19,341 nucleotides of DNA from a virus (IMGVR_UViG_2700989509_000025:1-19341), one strand, 5' to 3'; positions 3,856 through 19,341 are shown, numbered from the stretch's first letter. Translations and numbers: made by a program. The notes: generated from the letters alone by a model not told the origin.

Positions 3856-4454
3856 TACGCAAACTCCAGTAACTGCGCGGCCACATTTTCGACTTCCTCC
3901 GGAGAGGAAAATTTACGGAACAGGATCCAGTTCCACAGCACATTCAGTACAGATTTATAAACCTGCTGAAACACGGTTTCGTCCATGTTCGCAAATGCGA
4001 TAGATTTTGCCCTGCGCCCACGACTACCATCAGGATAAATATGCTCGGTGTAAAATCCGGCCTGAATGGTTACCCATTCGCGAAAAGCGTCAAAGGACTT
4101 GAGTAAGGCCGTATCCCGGGTTCTGCAAGTCGTAACGGTGTTAAGGTATTGCTCTGCGGCATCACTCAGGGCTGGCGTATGTTCCCGACCTACTGATTCG
4201 CACAGGAAATCAACGAAACCGGACACCAGTTCTCGTTCGCGAGGCGTGATCGCCCCACCGTTCGGAGTCCAGTAATCGAATCCCAGTTGCAGGAGTTTGA
4301 AAAAACGCTTGTGGAATGCGTAGTTACGCACACGCTTAAAGTCTGCGTGTATCCACTCACCGATTTTGATTTGATGCAAAAAATCGCAACTCTCCGGCGT
4401 CGCCGGGAGAAGTAATCCGGAAGAGGTTTGTTTGACCAGTTGTATATGCGCCAT
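3855..4454 (-). CDS. nin-region phage protein of unknown function (possibly DUF1367-type)
   Basis: 199-aa ORF with SD GGAGAA 6 nt upstream of ATG at 4454; stop overlaps next start (TAATG). Family name from recollection only. Confidence 0.55.
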   Translation of the reverse strand: MAHIQLVKQTSSGLLLPATPESCDFLHQIKIGEWIHADFKRVRNYAFHKRFFKLLQLGFDYWTPNGGAITPRERELVSGFVDFLCESVGREHTPALSDAAEQYLNTVTTCRTRDTALLKSFDAFREWVTIQAGFYTEHIYPDGSRGRRAKSIAFANMDETVFQQVYKSVLNVLWNWILFRKFSSPEEVENVAAQLLEFA

Positions 4455-4525
4455 CGTAGTTCTCCGCTGGCGCAGTAGAATGGGTGTTCAGCCCGTTATG
4501 TAGTATACCAGAATTAATGCCAATA

Positions 4526-4777
4526 CTAACAGGATGCTCTGACTCGCAATTCATCCAGCAGTTTATCATTTCCCATAATGTCACTTACCCTCATCGGTAA
4601 AAAAATTGCCTTTCGACCATTACGATACATCATTGATTTTGGGGTTTCAGGGAAGTAATCCATTTCGACTATAACTGACAGGTCATCACGACGTATGACT
4701 GCGTATTTGCAACTAAATAGTTTCTTTATTTTTTCCACGATGCCTCCGAGTTTATAAGTACAAACGGTTATATCCAC
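4526..4777 (-). CDS. Hypothetical small protein (start uncertain)
   Basis: 83-aa ORF in AT-rich spacer; codon at 4777 is GTG with no clear SD; internal ATGs also lack SD. Confidence 0.25.
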   Translation of the reverse strand: MDITVCTYKLGGIVEKIKKLFSCKYAVIRRDDLSVIVEMDYFPETPKSMMYRNGRKAIFLPMRVSDIMGNDKLLDELRVRASC

Positions 4778-4920
4778 ATAGAGACAAAAATATTAATCTG
4801 AAAAATATTTATTTCACGCCGTATATTTGATTATTTAATGTGCAGGTACAATGACTTTTATTTTTTGTTGTGTATATAATCAAATATATGGTTATTTTTC
4901 ACCCTGCGCATTCAGCGCGC

Positions 4921-4946
4921 AACAAAAAACCCGCCGAAGCGGGTTT
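4921..4946 (-). terminator. Intrinsic terminator downstream of hok
   Basis: On minus strand AAACCCGC-ttcg-GCGGGTTT followed by TTTTTTGTTG. Confidence 0.6.
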
Positions 4947-5013
4947 AGTGCGGGTGCGTTAAGGATGCCTGACACATGAGAGGTGGCGAGGGATTTCTCC
5001 CCCGCCTGGTCTC

Positions 5014-5169
5014 TTACTCCTCAGGTTCGTAAGCTGTGAAGACAGCGACCTCCGTCTGGCCGGTTCGGATTCGTACCTCGCAGAGGTCTTTCCTCGTTAC
5101 CAGTGCCGTCACTATGACGGTTAAACAGATGACGATCAGGGCGATTAACATCGCCTTTTGCTGCTTCAT
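5014..5169 (-). CDS. hokD: Hok/Gef-family type I toxin (HokD/RelF-like small membrane peptide)
   Basis: 51-aa product MKQQKAMLIALIVICLTVIVTALVTRKDLCEVRIRTGQTEVAVFTAYEPEE matches recalled HokD; SD AAGGAG 9 nt upstream of ATG at 5169. ORF track extends in frame to 5226 (19 extra codons). Confidence 0.8.
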   Translation of the reverse strand: MKQQKAMLIALIVICLTVIVTALVTRKDLCEVRIRTGQTEVAVFTAYEPEE

Positions 5170-5345
5170 AGCCTGCTTCTCCTTGCCTTTCGGCACGTAA
5201 GAGGCTAACCTACGTGTGTAGAGCATAGATATGGCCTCAGATTAATGTTAAGCGTCTTGCCGGACGCGTAATGTTAACTGGGGCTTTTCTCTATCTGCCT
5301 TTTGGTGTTCATGCCTGAGGCAGATAGCCTCAAGCACCCGCAGCA

Positions 5346-5374
5346 ATTCTAACTATCCAATAGATCAATGCCAA
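5346..5374 (-). promoter_or_regulatory. Candidate sigma70 promoter for hok mRNA
   Basis: Minus strand TTGGCA (5369..5374) - 17 nt - TAGAAT (5346..5351); would give a ~170-nt structured leader containing a 9-bp inverted repeat (CTATCTGCC...GGCAGATAG). Confidence 0.4.
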
Positions 5375-5726
5375 CTTCTTTTCCTGCAACATCTCTCATC
5401 ATAAGTGACCCAAATTCATCCAATCAGCACAAAAGAAACATTTAAAGCGTGAATGCTACCGAACGTTCATTTCAATTACATCGTTTTGATTTTTAACAGT
5501 TTTCACCTCAACAAATCAAATGGCATTAGCATTCATCATGGAAGAAAGACTGATAAAAATGATCATTTTCAATGACTTATGATCACACCGGGTATTGCCA
5601 AGTCATTCCTTTTACGCCAGGATACCCACAAGTGAGTAGTCGAGGAGAGTTTGCCAATTTTTGCGATATAAATTTCAATGCCCGAAGAACCATTAATTGT
5701 TAATTGATTCTGTATAAGGTATTAAC

Positions 5727-6824
5727 ATGACAATTTCATATATTCCTATTCTGAAAGCGAAACGTTCTGAGTTATCAGCTTTATCGCAGCTATCCATTGA
5801 AAAGAAATCAAAAATTTTGCCATTACTCGAAATTGAACCAGTGCCAATTGACCCTGATTCAGGTATTGCCTTAAAGAGTTATAACGAGACTCTTATAGAG
5901 TTCGGAAAGAAAGTCTCAAAATCTTGCTCAGATATGCAAGGTGTTTATATTGATGGATTATTAATTGAAGAGCATTTTATTTCTCCTGAAGATCATTACC
6001 CTATAATAAATGCGGTTAATCAAGTTAGAGATATGGGGATAAGAGTTATTCCTGTCAGTTCACCAACTCGCCCATCTAACTATAAAAGAGCGATTGATGA
6101 ATTAATGCAGAATGAAATATGCTTGAGATTAACCACGTTAGATCTGGTTAACCCACAATTAATAACGCATTACATTAATCATCTGGGAATTCCTTTATCA
6201 AATATTGATATAATTATTGACTTAAGAGATGAGTTAACCGAGGATAAAATTAATTCCGGCGAACTATATACTTTGGCAATGGGATTGATAAACAATCTGG
6301 CGCACCTCAATGAATACAGAAAAGTGATTCTTTCTGGGGGTTCATTTCCTACAGATCTCAGTGATATTTCTGTTGGTCTATATTCTCAACCTCGAATCGA
6401 GTGGATTTTATGGCAGAGTTTAATGAATAGAAAAGAACTTGCCAGAAATGTGATTTATAGTGATTATGGAGTACAGCACCCCGACTTTAATAGGCTTTCG
6501 ACGCGATTCCCTAGCGTATCTGCCAGCGTCAGATACTCTGGAGATAATGACTTTTGGGTATTTCGAGGAAGAGTAGCTAATCGCTTTGGTTATGAACAAT
6601 ATGGTAAACATAGTGAGGATATTCTTGCTCATCGAGAATATTCAGGGCCTACATTCTGTGCGGGAGATAGAGACATAGAATATTATGCAAACGAGTATCA
6701 AGCCTACAAAGCCAATCCCTCTGGTAACTATAAATTTGGTAGCCCAGAGGTATGGCGTAGGATTGGGCAAAACCATCACATAACTAAGGTTGTTGAGCAA
6801 CTCGCCACTCTTTACGGGCTTTAA
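5727..6824 (+). CDS. Beta-family-like protein (P4 Beta / sce7725-type, by recollection); candidate defense component
   Basis: 365-aa ORF in markedly AT-rich DNA; N-terminus MTISYIPILKAKRSELSAL; SD AAGG about 8 nt upstream; 3' end overlaps the convergent gene by 41 bp. Confidence 0.6.
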   Translation: MTISYIPILKAKRSELSALSQLSIEKKSKILPLLEIEPVPIDPDSGIALKSYNETLIEFGKKVSKSCSDMQGVYIDGLLIEEHFISPEDHYPIINAVNQVRDMGIRVIPVSSPTRPSNYKRAIDELMQNEICLRLTTLDLVNPQLITHYINHLGIPLSNIDIIIDLRDELTEDKINSGELYTLAMGLINNLAHLNEYRKVILSGGSFPTDLSDISVGLYSQPRIEWILWQSLMNRKELARNVIYSDYGVQHPDFNRLSTRFPSVSASVRYSGDNDFWVFRGRVANRFGYEQYGKHSEDILAHREYSGPTFCAGDRDIEYYANEYQAYKANPSGNYKFGSPEVWRRIGQNHHITKVVEQLATLYGL

Positions 6825-7362
6825 GTTTAACTCGAACAGCTTCACGAAGCTCGCCAACATCCATACTATTGGCGAGTTTTGACCATAAGACGCGTTTAGG
6901 TTTATTTTTCAAATTCTGTAGCTCCCCTACATCACTTAATAGGGAAAGCAATTCATCTTTCCAAAGAAGCATTGTTAAGGAAAGTTTGTCCACTTGTGGA
7001 TTCAACTTGCTAGTTCGAATTGTTTTTAAATGGATACCTTGCCGTGCACCTTGCGTAACTTGCTTTATCCCCCACCATGATGGAACTATGCTTAAAGCAT
7101 CATAAAGATGGCAATCAGAGACAACCAAAGTTACTTTATCCATCACTGATGAGTAATGTTGCACCTGCGCTGGTAATCTGAGCAAGTTATCACTCTTGCT
7201 CTTCAACTCATAACCATGTATAAGCCCATTGATCACTGCTATATCAGCTCTGCTAGCCCCTAGATTCATCGTAAACTCATCAATGATTAGGGTGTCAGGA
7301 TCTTTATGATGATCTCTCAGAATCTTGGCATGCACAGCCTTTCTTACATCAATGTCTCTCAT
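6784..7362 (-). CDS. sce7726-type protein with PD-(D/E)xK-like nuclease motif; candidate defense component
   Basis: 192-aa ORF, AT-rich; contains D (in LIIDEF) followed about 20 aa later by E-L-K (GYELKSKSD), the spacing of PD-(D/E)xK cores; also WWGI and LLW blocks I associate with sce7726-type proteins. Weak RBS. Confidence 0.55.
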   Translation of the reverse strand: MRDIDVRKAVHAKILRDHHKDPDTLIIDEFTMNLGASRADIAVINGLIHGYELKSKSDNLLRLPAQVQHYSSVMDKVTLVVSDCHLYDALSIVPSWWGIKQVTQGARQGIHLKTIRTSKLNPQVDKLSLTMLLWKDELLSLLSDVGELQNLKNKPKRVLWSKLANSMDVGELREAVRVKLKARKEWRVAQQP

Positions 7363-7684
7363 ACCATAGTTGCGCTTTCATCGACTCTCTCAAGCCATGA
7401 TTCTATATCATGGTTCGCATGAATGCCATTTGATATGACCAGTGGTTAAACATTGCACAGAAAAGTGGATGTGTATTTTAACAAAAGCAATGACGGCTAA
7501 CCATGTTGGTATGTCGATAAAATGTTTCAACGTAAGCATTATCTGTTCCGCCCTTTCGGGCGGCCTCCTGATGTTCTGAGGGTGCAGAAATCCCTCCGGT
7601 TAAGGATTAAATTTTATTTACAGAACTGAATTTAATTATTCAGATATACGTATCTGTAACCTTACTAACCTACTCACTGGATGC

Positions 7685-8158
7685 CTATTTCATAAAAATA
7701 ATCCAGTGGGTTTTATCGTTTTTTCCTGTTCGTTGACCGATAACAGGTTTTCTGTCGGTCAGTGCCAATATCTGGCGAACAGGTATTTGCGTTTCATTCC
7801 ATTTAAAAATCAGAACGCCGTATGGACGCAACACACGAAAGGCTTCTTTAAATCCCTGCCGCAAATCATCACGCCAGGTATCTTTATTCAGCCGTCCATA
7901 TTTCTTTCCCATCCAGGCGTTATCACCAACACGCTCAAGATGCGGAGGATCGAATATAACCATCGAAAAAGATGCGTCTGCAAATGGTAGTGCACGAAAA
8001 TCAGCTATCAGATCAGGACTGATAATCAGGCGTCGTCCATCACACAATGTGTGCTCTTCCTTTCTGATATCGCTAAATATCGCCCGGTCGTCATTCTTAT
8101 CGAACCAGAACATGCGACTGCCACAGCACATATCAAGAATGGTTGCCGGTGCACTCAC
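7685..8158 (-). CDS. Small phage DNA methyltransferase (Dam-like, N6-adenine or N4-cytosine class)
   Basis: 157-aa ORF with GTG start preceded by AGGAGG; motif I-like ILDMCCGSR and motif IV-like VIFDPPHL; GTGA overlap with upstream gene. Confidence 0.65.
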   Translation of the reverse strand: MSAPATILDMCCGSRMFWFDKNDDRAIFSDIRKEEHTLCDGRRLIISPDLIADFRALPFADASFSMVIFDPPHLERVGDNAWMGKKYGRLNKDTWRDDLRQGFKEAFRVLRPYGVLIFKWNETQIPVRQILALTDRKPVIGQRTGKNDKTHWIIFMK

Positions 8159-12632: not shown

Positions 12633-13040
12633 ACCATTTATTGGATTAATTCAATATTCTTGCTGTAGGGGTATAGCCGAGGCCACCAAAGCCCGGAGGT
12701 GGTGAAATAAAACCGGGCACAACACGAAGGCGCATTTCCGGTATCCATAAAGAGTCGGTCTTGTCTGTTAAATTTAAATGGTGGGAGTGCGCCTCCGGTT
12801 GTAAATAACGACATTGCTATGTGTAGTCTTTGGCGGCATCAGTTCTACTCCGTGGCTGCCCTGCCGCCCCTTTTTAAAGTGAATTTTGTGATGCGGTGAA
12901 TGCGGCTAAGCGCACGCGGCACAGTTAAAAGCATCAGTGTTATGGGTGGATTATCCGGCGTTAATTGTTAACTGGTTAACGTCACCTGGAGGCACCAGGC
13001 ACCGCATCGACAAAATTCATTTGTAAAAATGGAGATAATT

Positions 13041-13262
13041 ATGATTGCTCATCACTTCGGAACTGATGAAATACCACGTCAGTGTGTGACTCCTGGCGAT
13101 TATGTTCTTCATGAAGGTCGGACATATATCGCCTCGGCAAACAATATTAAAAAGCGAAAACTTTATATTCGTAGCCTGACTACAAAAACATGCATTTCTG
13201 ACTGCATGATTAGAGTCTTCCTCGGTCGTGATGGTTTACCTGTAAAGGCGGAGTCATGGTAA
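13041..13262 (+). CDS. kilR: KilR-like cell-division inhibitor
   Basis: 73 aa from ATG at 13041 (SD GGAG); [35 protein letters not shown]... matches recalled Rac KilR. Confidence 0.75.
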
Positions 13263-13432
13263 TGACTAAGAAAATAAAATGTGCTTATCACCTTTGCAAT
13301 AAAGAAATTGAAGAAAGCAAAATCATTACAAGACCACTTCATTTCATGCGTGGAGTTATACCAACGACGGAAATGAAAAAATATTGTAGTGAAATCTGTG
13401 CCGAAAAAGACCAGATGGCACACGAACTTTAA
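13262..13432 (+). CDS. YdaE-like small Cys-rich (zinc-binding) protein
   Basis: Hand-found 56-aa ORF (below track cutoff): [56 protein letters not shown]; start overlaps kilR stop (TAATG). Confidence 0.55.
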   Translation: MTKKIKCAYHLCNKEIEESKIITRPLHFMRGVIPTTEMKKYCSEICAEKDQMAHEL

Positions 13433-13506
13433 TTAACTGACTATCCGAAACTGAATTTATGCCAGCAATGGCAGGGATTCGCTCAACCTTAATTAAGGAG
13501 AAAAAC

Positions 13507-13782
13507 ATGATTACCAGTTATGAAGCCACTGTTGTTACTACTGATGACGTTGTTCACGAAGTTATCCTGGAAGGAAAACTCATTGGCTACGTGATTAAAA
13601 CAGAAAATAAAGAAACCCCATTCACCGTGGTTGATATCGACGGTCCATCAGGCAACGTTAAAACACTTCACGAAGGTGTAAAAAAAATGTGCATGGTGCA
13701 CATCATAAAGAATATTCCAGCAGAGAAAAAAGACAGGATTATGGCAACTCTGATTGAGATGGAACAAAAAGGCGAAATCTGA
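13507..13782 (+). CDS. racC: RacC-like protein
   Basis: 91 aa from ATG at 13507 preceded by AAGGAG; MITSYEATVVTTDDVVHEVILEGKLIGYVIK... matches recalled Rac RacC. Confidence 0.75.
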   Translation: MITSYEATVVTTDDVVHEVILEGKLIGYVIKTENKETPFTVVDIDGPSGNVKTLHEGVKKMCMVHIIKNIPAEKKDRIMATLIEMEQKGEI

Positions 13783-13882
13783 ATGGGAAAAAGGCCTGCA
13801 CTCAGCGCAGGCCTGAGTCAAGAACCCGGGACATTTATTCATCACTCGCAATAATTTTAATCTGAGTTGAGGTTAAAAAACA

Positions 13883-17357: not shown

Positions 17358-17413
17358 TTCAGCCTGGCGGTGTAATGCACCGCCAACTTGAAATATTTTT
17401 TATGAGAAAAATT

Positions 17414-17608
17414 ATGAGATATGACAATGTTAAACCATGTCCATTTTGTGGTTGTCCATCAGTAACGGTGAAAGTCATTTCAGGATATTACCGAGCGAAG
17501 TGTAACGGATGCGAATCCCGAACCGGTTATGGTGGAAGTGAAAAAGAAGCACTCGAAAGATGGAATAAACGAACCACTGGAAATAATAACGGAGGTGTTC
17601 ATGTATAA
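17414..17608 (+). CDS. ralR: RalR/Lar restriction-alleviation protein
   Basis: 64 aa from internal ATG at 17414: MRYDNVKPCPFCGCPSVTVKVISGYYRAKCNGCESRTGYGGSEKEALERWNKRTTGNNNGGVHV. Confidence 0.75.
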   Translation: MRYDNVKPCPFCGCPSVTVKVISGYYRAKCNGCESRTGYGGSEKEALERWNKRTTGNNNGGVHV

Positions 17609-17789
17609 AATTACCGCCACTATTGAAAAGGAAGGTGGCACTCCTACTAACTGGACAAGATATTCAAAATCTAAACTAACGAAATCAGAATGCGAAAAAA
17701 TGCTCTCAGGTAAAAAAGAAGCAGGCGTTTCCAGAGAGCAGAAAGTAAAACTGATAAATTTTAATTGCGAGAAACTTCAGTCCTCGTGA
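17601..17789 (+). CDS. ydaC: YdaC-like small protein
   Basis: 62 aa from ATG at 17601 preceded by GGAGG; start overlaps ralR stop. Confidence 0.65.
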   Translation: MYKITATIEKEGGTPTNWTRYSKSKLTKSECEKMLSGKKEAGVSREQKVKLINFNCEKLQSS

Positions 17790-17888
17790 ATTGCATTGTA
17801 TTCAAATTAAAACTTCATAGCTGATTATTAATAATCAACATCGGGCGTCAATTTCAGTCTAACATTGGCGCCTGCCAGAGGTGATGCG

Positions 17889-18104
17889 ATGGCACAAGTA
17901 ATCTTTAATGAAGAGTGGATGGTTGAATACGGCCTGATGCTTCGCACTGGTCTGGGGGCCAGACAAATTGAAGCATACCGCCAGAACTGTTGGGTGGAGG
18001 GCTTCCACTTCAAACGAGTATCTCCTTTAGGTAAGCCAGACAGCAAACGAGGGATTATCTGGTACAACTATCCAAAGATAAATCAGTTTATCAAAGACTC
18101 ATGA
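17889..18104 (+). CDS. xisR: Excisionase (XisR-like)
   Basis: 71 aa from ATG at 17889: [44 protein letters not shown]...; directly upstream of integrase. Confidence 0.75.
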
Positions 18105-18105
18105 T

Positions 18106-19341
18106 ATGTCTAAATTACCAACAGGTGTCGAGATTAGAGGTAGATACATTCGCATCTGGTTCATGTTTCGAGGAAAACGATGTCGGGAAACATTAAAAGG
18201 CTGGGAGATTACAAACAGTAATATTAAAAAGGCCGGAAATTTAAGAGCGCTGATAGTTCATGAAATAAACTCCGGTGAATTTGAGTATTTAAGACGTTTT
18301 CCCCAGTCCAGCACTGGGGCAAAAATGGTGACAACGAGAGTCATAAAAACGTTCGGAGAGCTTTGTGATATCTGGACAAAAATTAAAGAGACAGAGTTAA
18401 CAACAAACACAATGAAGAAAACGAAATCACAATTAAAAACACTCAGAATAATAATTTGTGAAAGTACCCTGATATCACATATTCGTTATAGCGATATCTT
18501 AAACTACCGGAATGAACTGCTGCATGGAGAAACGCTTTACCTGGATAATCCAAGATCCAACAAAAAAGGAAGAACCGTGCGCACAGTTGATAACTATATC
18601 GCCCTGCTCTGTTCGCTGTTACGTTTTGCGTATCAGTCGGGATTTATATCAACCAAACCATTTGAAGGAGTAAAAAAATTACAGCGAAACAGAATAAAGC
18701 CTGATCCGTTATCTAAAACAGAATTCAATGCATTAATGGAAAGTGAAAAAGGACAGAGCCAGAACATGTGGAAATTTGCAGTTTACTCAGGACTTCGTCA
18801 CGGGGAACTGGCAGCTCTGGCGTGGGAGGATGTGGATCTCGAAAAGGGAATAGTGAATGTCAGAAGAAACCTGACGATACTTGATATGTTCGGTCCCCCA
18901 AAAACAAATGCCGGGATCCGGACAGTAACACTACTGCAGCCTGCTCTTGAAGCACTGAAGGAGCAATACAAACTGACCGGGCATCATCGCAAAAGCGAAA
19001 TCACCTTTTATCATCGGGAGTACGGCAGAACCGAAAAGCAAAAACTGCATTTTGTTTTCATGCCCAGGGTGTGTAACGGAAAACAAAAACCTTATTACTC
19101 GGTAAGCAGTTTGGGGGCAAGGTGGAATGCAGCAGTAAAACGTGCTGGTATTCGCCGCCGTAATCCGTACCATACGCGGCATACTTTTGCCTGCTGGCTG
19201 TTGACGGCAGGAGCGAACCCGGCATTTATAGCCAGCCAAATGGGGCATGAAACTGCGCAGATGGTGTATGAAATTTACGGTATGTGGATTGATGACATGA
19301 ACGACGAACAGATAGCCATGTTGAATGCGCGGTTATCATAG
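18106..19341 (+). CDS. intR: Tyrosine-type site-specific integrase (IntR-like)
   Basis: 411-aa ORF ending at the window edge with stop; C-terminal catalytic region HTRHTFACWLL...MGHETAQMVYEIY with R, H-x-x-R and Y. Confidence 0.9.
   Translation: MSKLPTGVEIRGRYIRIWFMFRGKRCRETLKGWEITNSNIKKAGNLRALIVHEINSGEFEYLRRFPQSSTGAKMVTTRVIKTFGELCDIWTKIKETELTTNTMKKTKSQLKTLRIIICESTLISHIRYSDILNYRNELLHGETLYLDNPRSNKKGRTVRTVDNYIALLCSLLRFAYQSGFISTKPFEGVKKLQRNRIKPDPLSKTEFNALMESEKGQSQNMWKFAVYSGLRHGELAALAWEDVDLEKGIVNVRRNLTILDMFGPPKTNAGIRTVTLLQPALEALKEQYKLTGHHRKSEITFYHREYGRTEKQKLHFVFMPRVCNGKQKPYYSVSSLGARWNAAVKRAGIRRRNPYHTRHTFACWLLTAGANPAFIASQMGHETAQMVYEIYGMWIDDMNDEQIAMLNARLS

Follow-up and report, generated by a model that had tools for sequence, protein, structure and literature searches.

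A gop-less beta-cII gene pair with overlapping 3' ends as a plausible two-gene defence module of a Rac-type prophage

Background

Homology to both P4 beta and P4 cII identifies two convergent genes in a prophage sequence as the beta-cII core of the validated defence system gop-beta-cII, in the same convergent layout and without gop. The locus is a gop-less, stand-alone form of a known type of system, for which a defence role is plausible. The original prediction had presented the two genes as an uncharacterised candidate anti-phage module; the pair and its families are real, but the core is already known from P4 and the module is not wholly new.

The gop-beta-cII system protects against lambda and P1 (Rousset 2022, PMC9122126), and it is triggered by a phage accessory gene, which leads to cell death (bioRxiv 10.1101/2023.04.06.535777). 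The trigger is orf184 of the lambda family. The original description of gop/beta was as toxin-antitoxin-like (PMC9122126), with beta neutralising Gop in P4, and according to later papers citing Ghisotti 1990, Gop is the only component shown to be toxic. A second characterised system, PD-lambda-2, has three components: a HigB-like protein, an Xre-peptidase that is toxic, and a third, beta-like protein, C, which is needed for defence and not for toxin neutralisation (Vassallo 2022, PMC9519451). The names sce7725 and sce7726 occurred in the literature we searched in annotation lists only, and we found no functional study of that pair.

Sequences surveyed

The stretch analysed, referred to as the window, is 19,341 nucleotides long. 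We retrieved 80 loci from species-representative genomes with an alignment of the sce7726 family and, in the reverse direction, 58 loci from viral contigs with an alignment of the beta family. The spacing of the C-terminal motifs described below was counted in the 80 of 98 distinct pairs in which a strict regular expression found both motifs.

The gene pair and its surroundings

The beta-family gene (5727..6824, + strand) encodes 365 amino acids and the sce7726 / P4-cII-family gene (6784..7362, - strand) 192 amino acids; both start with ATG, and both were found exactly where they had been predicted. On the beta side the pair adjoins hok/mok (5014..5226, -), and with sok (5164-5339, -; Rfam, 118.7 bits) a complete hok/mok/sok type I toxin-antitoxin locus is the immediate neighbour of the module. 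A class I SAM methyltransferase gene (7685..8158, -) flanks it on the sce7726 side, in agreement with the predicted position between a methyltransferase and hok. Just downstream of hok we noted a sub-threshold Rfam match to isrK, an Hfq-binding sRNA (4924-5005, -; 31 bits against a gathering score of 50, E 3e-4), which is overlapped by a weaker match to rsmX.

The expected AT-richness relative to the flanking backbone was borne out by a sliding-window check: beta has a GC content of 0.372 and sce7726 one of 0.409; the two together have 0.383, compared with 0.466 in the window as a whole. The pair falls within the lowest 3.7% of 1636-bp segments in a scan of the window, the GC minimum of the whole window starts at 5401, and the AT-rich tract of about 5200-8000 is wider than both ORFs. 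Further AT-rich tracts of the prophage, at 4400-5000, 13000-13800 and 17400-18800 (GC 0.37-0.42), may be other cargo insertions.

The boundaries of the cargo could be placed by comparison with other genomes. On the left, hok/sok homology common to thousands of E. coli genomes stops near 5351. On the right, the boundary lies at about 7537-7643, and 7537-7643 itself matches the backbone of many lambdoid phages. The cargo thus extends from about 5352 to 7537-7643. The methyltransferase next to it is not part of the module, because variant prophages retain the pair up to 7643 and have another gene where the methyltransferase would be.

Between the left boundary and beta lies an AT-rich non-coding region (5352..5726, +), in which the beta promoter is presumed to reside; a six-frame reading gave no ORF longer than 43 aa between hok and beta. 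The sce7726 promoter is likewise presumed to lie within the non-coding region between that gene and the right boundary (7363..7643, -), where a promoter-like site (7429->7400, -) has 9 of 12 matches, which is not above chance. Comparison with the relatives by tblastn and blastn revealed nothing conserved, coding or non-coding, among the small ORFs or in either intergenic region. The idea that gop or some other third gene lies hidden there was rejected, as tblastn with P4 Gop, the six-frame reading of both intergenic regions and the comparison with the relatives all yielded no such gene.

The sce7726/cII-family protein

The smaller protein had been likened to the sce7726 family, and the profile search supported this: sce7726_fam (NCBIfam) matched residues 1-184 of 192 with 191.1 bits (cutoff 70), and RefSeq annotates the protein in the same way. 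The original prediction had connected the pair with P4 through a Beta homolog; the beta family is indeed shared, and the homology of the small protein to P4 cII had been overlooked. The two small proteins are 28% identical (BLASTP, E 2e-17), the PADLOC cll model matches the 192-aa protein at 2.4e-28 and 98 bits (376 for P4's own cII), all homologs carry PF26915 (Phage_P4_cII), and RefSeq in turn calls P4 cII a 'sce7726 family protein'. The cII family comprises 5,452 clusters (50% identity, E <= 1e-3), nearly all of them single-domain proteins of 190-250 aa.

Structure prediction gave an N-terminal PD-(D/E)xK nuclease fold (about residues 1-120) and a C-terminal helical domain (about 126-181). 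The alpha-beta-beta-beta-alpha-beta core of the PD-(D/E)xK superfamily, which had been suspected from motif spacing, is predicted with confidence, and E29, D40 (in RADIAV), E52 and K54 are invariant in an alignment of 40 sequences with 46-80% identity to the query. The suspected motif, LIIDEF followed by E-L-K, is present and its E52-L-K54 half was right, but the acidic partner differs: since D40 is invariant while D28 of LIIDEF is either D or E across the alignment, the canonical 'D ... ExK' is D40 ... E52-x-K54, with E29 as an additional invariant acid in strand 1. The closest solved structure is the MmcB-like repair-type protein SPO1766 (3dnx). No sequence-level relationship was detected to this protein or to the PD-(D/E)xK nucleases Can2 and NucS, and the 192-aa protein differs from all three in its extra C-terminal helical domain.

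The beta-family protein

The larger protein had been likened to the beta family and to sce7725, and only the first part of this held. The Pfam family Beta_protein (PF14350) is matched with 178 bits (cutoff 27), whereas sce7725_fam (NCBIfam) gives 12.3 bits, below its curated cutoff of 60. Compared with the NCBIfam sce7725/sce7726 pair, the 192-aa protein is thus a bona fide sce7726 and its partner falls below the sce7725 threshold. The window's beta is 23% identical to P4 beta (BLASTP, E 1e-8). The PADLOC 'beta' model reaches 18 bits over 37 N-terminal residues only, against 621 bits for P4 beta, and the PD-Lambda-2_C models match the full length of the protein (1.8e-41, 140 bits), against 448-504 bits for genuine C proteins. 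Because these scores are far below those of P4 beta and of the genuine C proteins, the window's beta, a member of the Beta_protein superfamily, would lie outside both characterised subfamilies and be an ortholog of neither P4 beta nor PD-lambda-2 C.

The protein is predicted to form a (beta/alpha)8 TIM barrel, with conserved residues at the C-terminal ends of the strands and an arginine-rich conserved pocket; structure comparison found no specific solved relative of this barrel. A barrel of this kind next to a nuclease could also be read as a modification or restriction-like system, in which beta would modify DNA or a nucleotide (for example by base exchange, as in DpdA/TGT or Cap10), with the resulting mark governing where the cII-like nuclease cuts DNA. 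We consider this reading improbable.

Comparison with known defence systems

In P4 the gene order is gop (+), beta (+; 651-1718), cII (-; 1746-2540), with beta and cII convergent as in the window. Both conserved genes are homologous to those of the window's pair (beta, PF14350; cII, PF26915/sce7726), and both loci are AT-rich accessory cargo of a mobile element. The two loci also differ. P4 has gop upstream of beta, whereas the window's pair has none: when the window was searched with P4 Gop by tblastn, the best match (E 0.22) fell at an unrelated site, PADLOC found no gop match in the window, and under the PADLOC models no complete system would be called at the locus. P4 cII has about 70 extra C-terminal residues. 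Finally, P4 beta and cII are separated by a 27-bp gap with an annotated terminator, in contrast to the coding overlap in the window.

PD-lambda-2 resembles the window's locus in that its third gene is also a member of the Beta_protein family. Neither the HigB-like component A (PADLOC, Pfam; no ORF is available for it) nor the Xre-HTH and M78 peptidase component B was found beside the pair. Two canonical PD-lambda-2-type loci (L160 and L162) have beta and no cII-like gene, and the ECOR42 clone ends 396 bp past the beta-like gene; because L160 and L162 have none, canonical PD-lambda-2 probably does not include an overlooked cII gene. As the beta-like protein works in PD-lambda-2 without cII, beta would not need the cII nuclease. 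The pair was also considered as a fragment of PD-lambda-2, and this was rejected because A and B are absent, the C models score 140 bits against 448-504, and canonical PD-lambda-2 is without cII.

Another conceivable role for the pair is that of a selfish addiction or stabilisation module, with a nuclease toxin and beta as antidote, that keeps the prophage or island in place and has no real anti-phage function. The first description of gop/beta as toxin-antitoxin-like (PMC9122126) is in keeping with this, and so is an analysis of Acinetobacter genomes that read a cluster of HigAB and Beta as island-stabilising (PMC7643966). The module also directly adjoins another addiction system, hok/sok, and the pair travels on prophages, islands and satellites. 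Yet both characterised relatives gave measurable phage protection and the prophage slot exchanges defence-type cargo (see below), and we regard pure addiction as unlikely; it is in any case not mutually exclusive with abortive defence.

Conservation of the pair across phyla

The 80 genomic loci came from Proteobacteria, Myxococcota, Acidobacteriota, Firmicutes, Chloroflexota, Actinobacteria, candidate-phyla-radiation (CPR) lineages and others. A Beta_protein gene was immediately downstream of, and convergent with, the sce7726 gene in 77 of these 80 loci, or in 77 of the 78 with room downstream. The three exceptions were two contig ends and one true orphan, an sce7726-family gene of Xenorhabdus koppenhoeferi (L011 5968-6564) with no beta within 2.8 kb downstream. 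In the reverse direction, a convergent cII-like gene was found in all 53 viral loci that had an intact beta and room downstream. The two genes are almost always convergent in about 98 distinct loci from many phyla.

The region upstream of beta was far more variable. About 20 of the 77 loci had a co-directional gene immediately adjoining the beta start. In 10-11 loci this gene encoded an Xre + M78 peptidase (PD-Lambda-2_B, 434-500 bits), preceded in five by HigB. Four-gene hybrids, in which HigB-like and Xre-M78 peptidase genes stand directly upstream of beta and a cII-like gene is convergent with it, were seen in other phyla, namely in L020, L041 (7657-9171, as an example), L057, L058, L073, L075, L079, L081 and L168, and this architecture is outside the published definition of PD-lambda-2. 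An FRG-domain protein (PADLOC PDC-S15) abutted beta in one locus (L078 7643-8470), and DUF6932 (PDC-M63A) was about 1-2 kb from beta in four (L037 8865-9380, L043, L076 and L081). These candidate defence genes may be extra partners or simply neighbours in a defence island. Other genes abutting beta encode proteins of about 200 aa and about 420 aa. No operonic third gene was present in any of the eight closest relatives (L003-L010; enterobacteria and Aeromonas), and the two-gene form was the commonest architecture across phyla.

The variable genes upstream of beta (HigB with Xre-M78, FRG/PDC-S15, DUF6932/PDC-M63A and, in P4, gop) fit a conserved beta-cII core with swappable toxin- or defence-type partners. 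When the cII-less PD-lambda-2-type loci are included, cII is the most frequent partner of Beta_protein superfamily members; some members have toxins instead, and others have both.

In relatives at 60-80% protein identity, pN was 0.22-0.35 against a saturated pS of 0.76-0.87, and both ORFs are intact; both genes are under purifying selection. This bears on the idea that the pair is in decay, as what is left of a three-gene gop-beta-cII or PD-lambda-2 system that has lost its toxin. Such decay would agree with the absence of gop and of PD-lambda-2 A and B, and with IS insertions at the locus in some strains. Both ORFs, however, are full length against their profiles and keep all invariant residues, selection is strong across genera, and the two-gene form predominates across phyla. 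Because of the purifying selection and the recurrence of the two-gene form in enterobacteria and at three E. coli cargo sites, the remnant idea is largely refuted and we find it barely credible; it is the only rival explanation that is clearly excluded.

The tail-to-tail overlap

The 3' ends of the convergent genes overlap by 41 bp (6784..6824), within which both strands are coding: the last 13 codons of beta (ending in QLATLYGL and the stop codon) are antisense to the last 13 of sce7726 (ending in KARKEWRVAQQP and the stop codon). Of the 77 genome pairs, 75 had overlapping coding sequences, as did all 53 intact viral pairs, giving 128 of 130 with P4 not counted; among 78 loci, P4 and only two others have lost the overlap. 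The overlaps ranged from 11 to 158 bp, and their length was 2 mod 3 in every genome and viral pair. A conserved C-terminal motif of sce7726, LKxRxxWR, and one of beta, NHHxxxVxxQL, are encoded antisense to each other, and the spacing between them was exactly 30 nt in 68 of the 80 distinct pairs with both motifs. The universal 2 mod 3 lengths and the fixed motif spacing show a beta-cII overlap that is ancestral, dual-coding, fixed in register and conserved across phyla. In the limited literature accessible to us, we found no mention of a register-fixed overlap of this kind.

A terminator-like hairpin, in itself a weak candidate, lies at 6849..6880 (+), beginning 25 nt past the beta stop codon and within the sce7726 coding sequence. 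It has an 8-bp stem (CTCGCCAA/TTGGCGAG) and an 11-nt loop and is followed by TTTT; its folding energy is -20 kcal/mol (z -2.9), equalled in stability by 1 of 200 shuffles. Of 79 loci, 25 had a similar hairpin after the beta stop codon, where shuffled sequences gave 2.2; the closest relatives L003, L004 and L007-L010 had none. The standard terminator scan missed the hairpin because of its loop length; apart from it, promoter and terminator matches around the pair were not above chance in the standard scan, and a hairpin scan gave no terminator-like signal past the sce7726 stop codon.

Because of the overlap, at least 41 nt of each mRNA must be complementary to the other. The overlap, the hairpin after the beta stop codon and the lack of a signal after that of sce7726 together make transcriptional interference or RNA-duplex control of beta and sce7726 possible. 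Convergent transcripts with overlapping 3' ends occur in type I toxin-antitoxin loci of Bacillus such as txpA/RatA and bsrG/SR4. Like these, the present genes are convergent with 3'-complementary transcripts, which would offer a route to mutual control at the RNA level; in contrast to them, each partner here codes for a conserved protein and the shared segment is coding on both strands.

A bolder reading of these observations is that beta-cII is an autonomous and ancient immune module of many phyla, in which the overlap acts as an antisense or transcription-collision switch and a TIM-barrel sensor or enzyme is set against a nuclease effector. The gop gene and the HigB/Xre-peptidase pair would then be later add-ons, and the core alone would suffice for defence by a mechanism that has yet to be described. 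We hold this version tentatively and think it less likely to be true than false.

Cargo slot and distribution in E. coli

In Rac-like prophages, the slot between hokD and the DUF977 gene is a hotspot for cargo. Its contents in other E. coli genomes (hits H33-H47) include a HEPN protein, a Sll1717-family P-loop ATPase, QueH, an alpha/beta hydrolase, DUF5677, DUF7167/DUF4406 and methyltransferases. In E. coli, the two-gene form occupies three distinct cargo sites on mobile elements; besides this slot, it was found in an integrase/resolvase island and in the gap between the lysis cassette and the terminase Nu1 gene of a lambdoid prophage, with no third gene at either. The record of phage Rac-SA53 names the two genes 'beta' and 'CII phage-like protein'.

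IS elements have struck the locus repeatedly (L002 7712-8874; L087 7229-7994; hit H10). O121 strains have an IS3 in the interval from hok to beta, an IS1 lies directly upstream of sce7726 in phage Rac-SA53, and an IS1 interrupts beta in strain PEC209. The beta genes of L122 and L124 are also rearranged or truncated.

The distribution is also relevant to whether the pair serves the prophage's own biology rather than defence, either in the control of lysogeny (cf. the name cII) or in DNA processing and recombination. Some database records do call family members 'regulatory protein', the repair-type protein 3dnx is the closest solved structure, and recE/recT are encoded nearby in the same prophage. 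Against such a role, only 93 of 5426 complete E. coli genomes contain the exact module, whereas thousands have the prophage flanks, unrelated cargo replaces the pair at the same slot, the pair is also found at unrelated sites, in non-phage islands and in many phyla, and no link to the core modules of the prophage was seen. We therefore give this explanation little credence.

Proposed function

In our preferred model, beta-cII is a self-contained two-gene module, an exchangeable occupant of the hokD-DUF977 slot in a Rac-type prophage, and it would defend the lysogen from attack by other phages through abortive infection or in the way of a toxin-antitoxin system. The cII-like PD-(D/E)xK protein, with its catalytic signature intact, would be the effector that cuts nucleic acid. 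The predicted TIM barrel of beta would be a partner that restrains the effector, senses infection, or both, possibly through physical interaction with the sce7726 protein; this role is modelled on the action of beta-family proteins towards Gop in P4 and the HigB/Xre-peptidase pair in PD-lambda-2. Convergent transcription across the register-fixed dual-coding 3' overlap would couple the expression of the two genes, perhaps by antisense regulation.

This is the best-supported of the explanations, given that both characterised relatives protect against phage, the pairing is near-obligate, and the slot exchanges defence-type cargo. On the other side, Gop, the toxin of P4, is absent, canonical PD-lambda-2 functions with a beta-like protein in the absence of cII, the window's beta is distant from both characterised beta proteins, and a 365-aa barrel would be an atypical antitoxin. 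For the model as a whole, our confidence and our doubt are about equal.

Conclusions

Both gop-beta-cII and PD-lambda-2 are validated defence systems without a known mechanism, and work on them has so far centred on the toxins. What this locus and its relatives have conserved across phyla is beta-cII rather than the toxins, and this pair commonly stands alone. Its conserved, convergent, dual-coding overlap is an unusually clean natural test case for the antisense coupling of protein-coding genes. If the pair defends alone, it would be missed by current catalogues such as PADLOC, and it would offer a minimal system for dissecting Beta_protein TIM barrels and cII-type nucleases.
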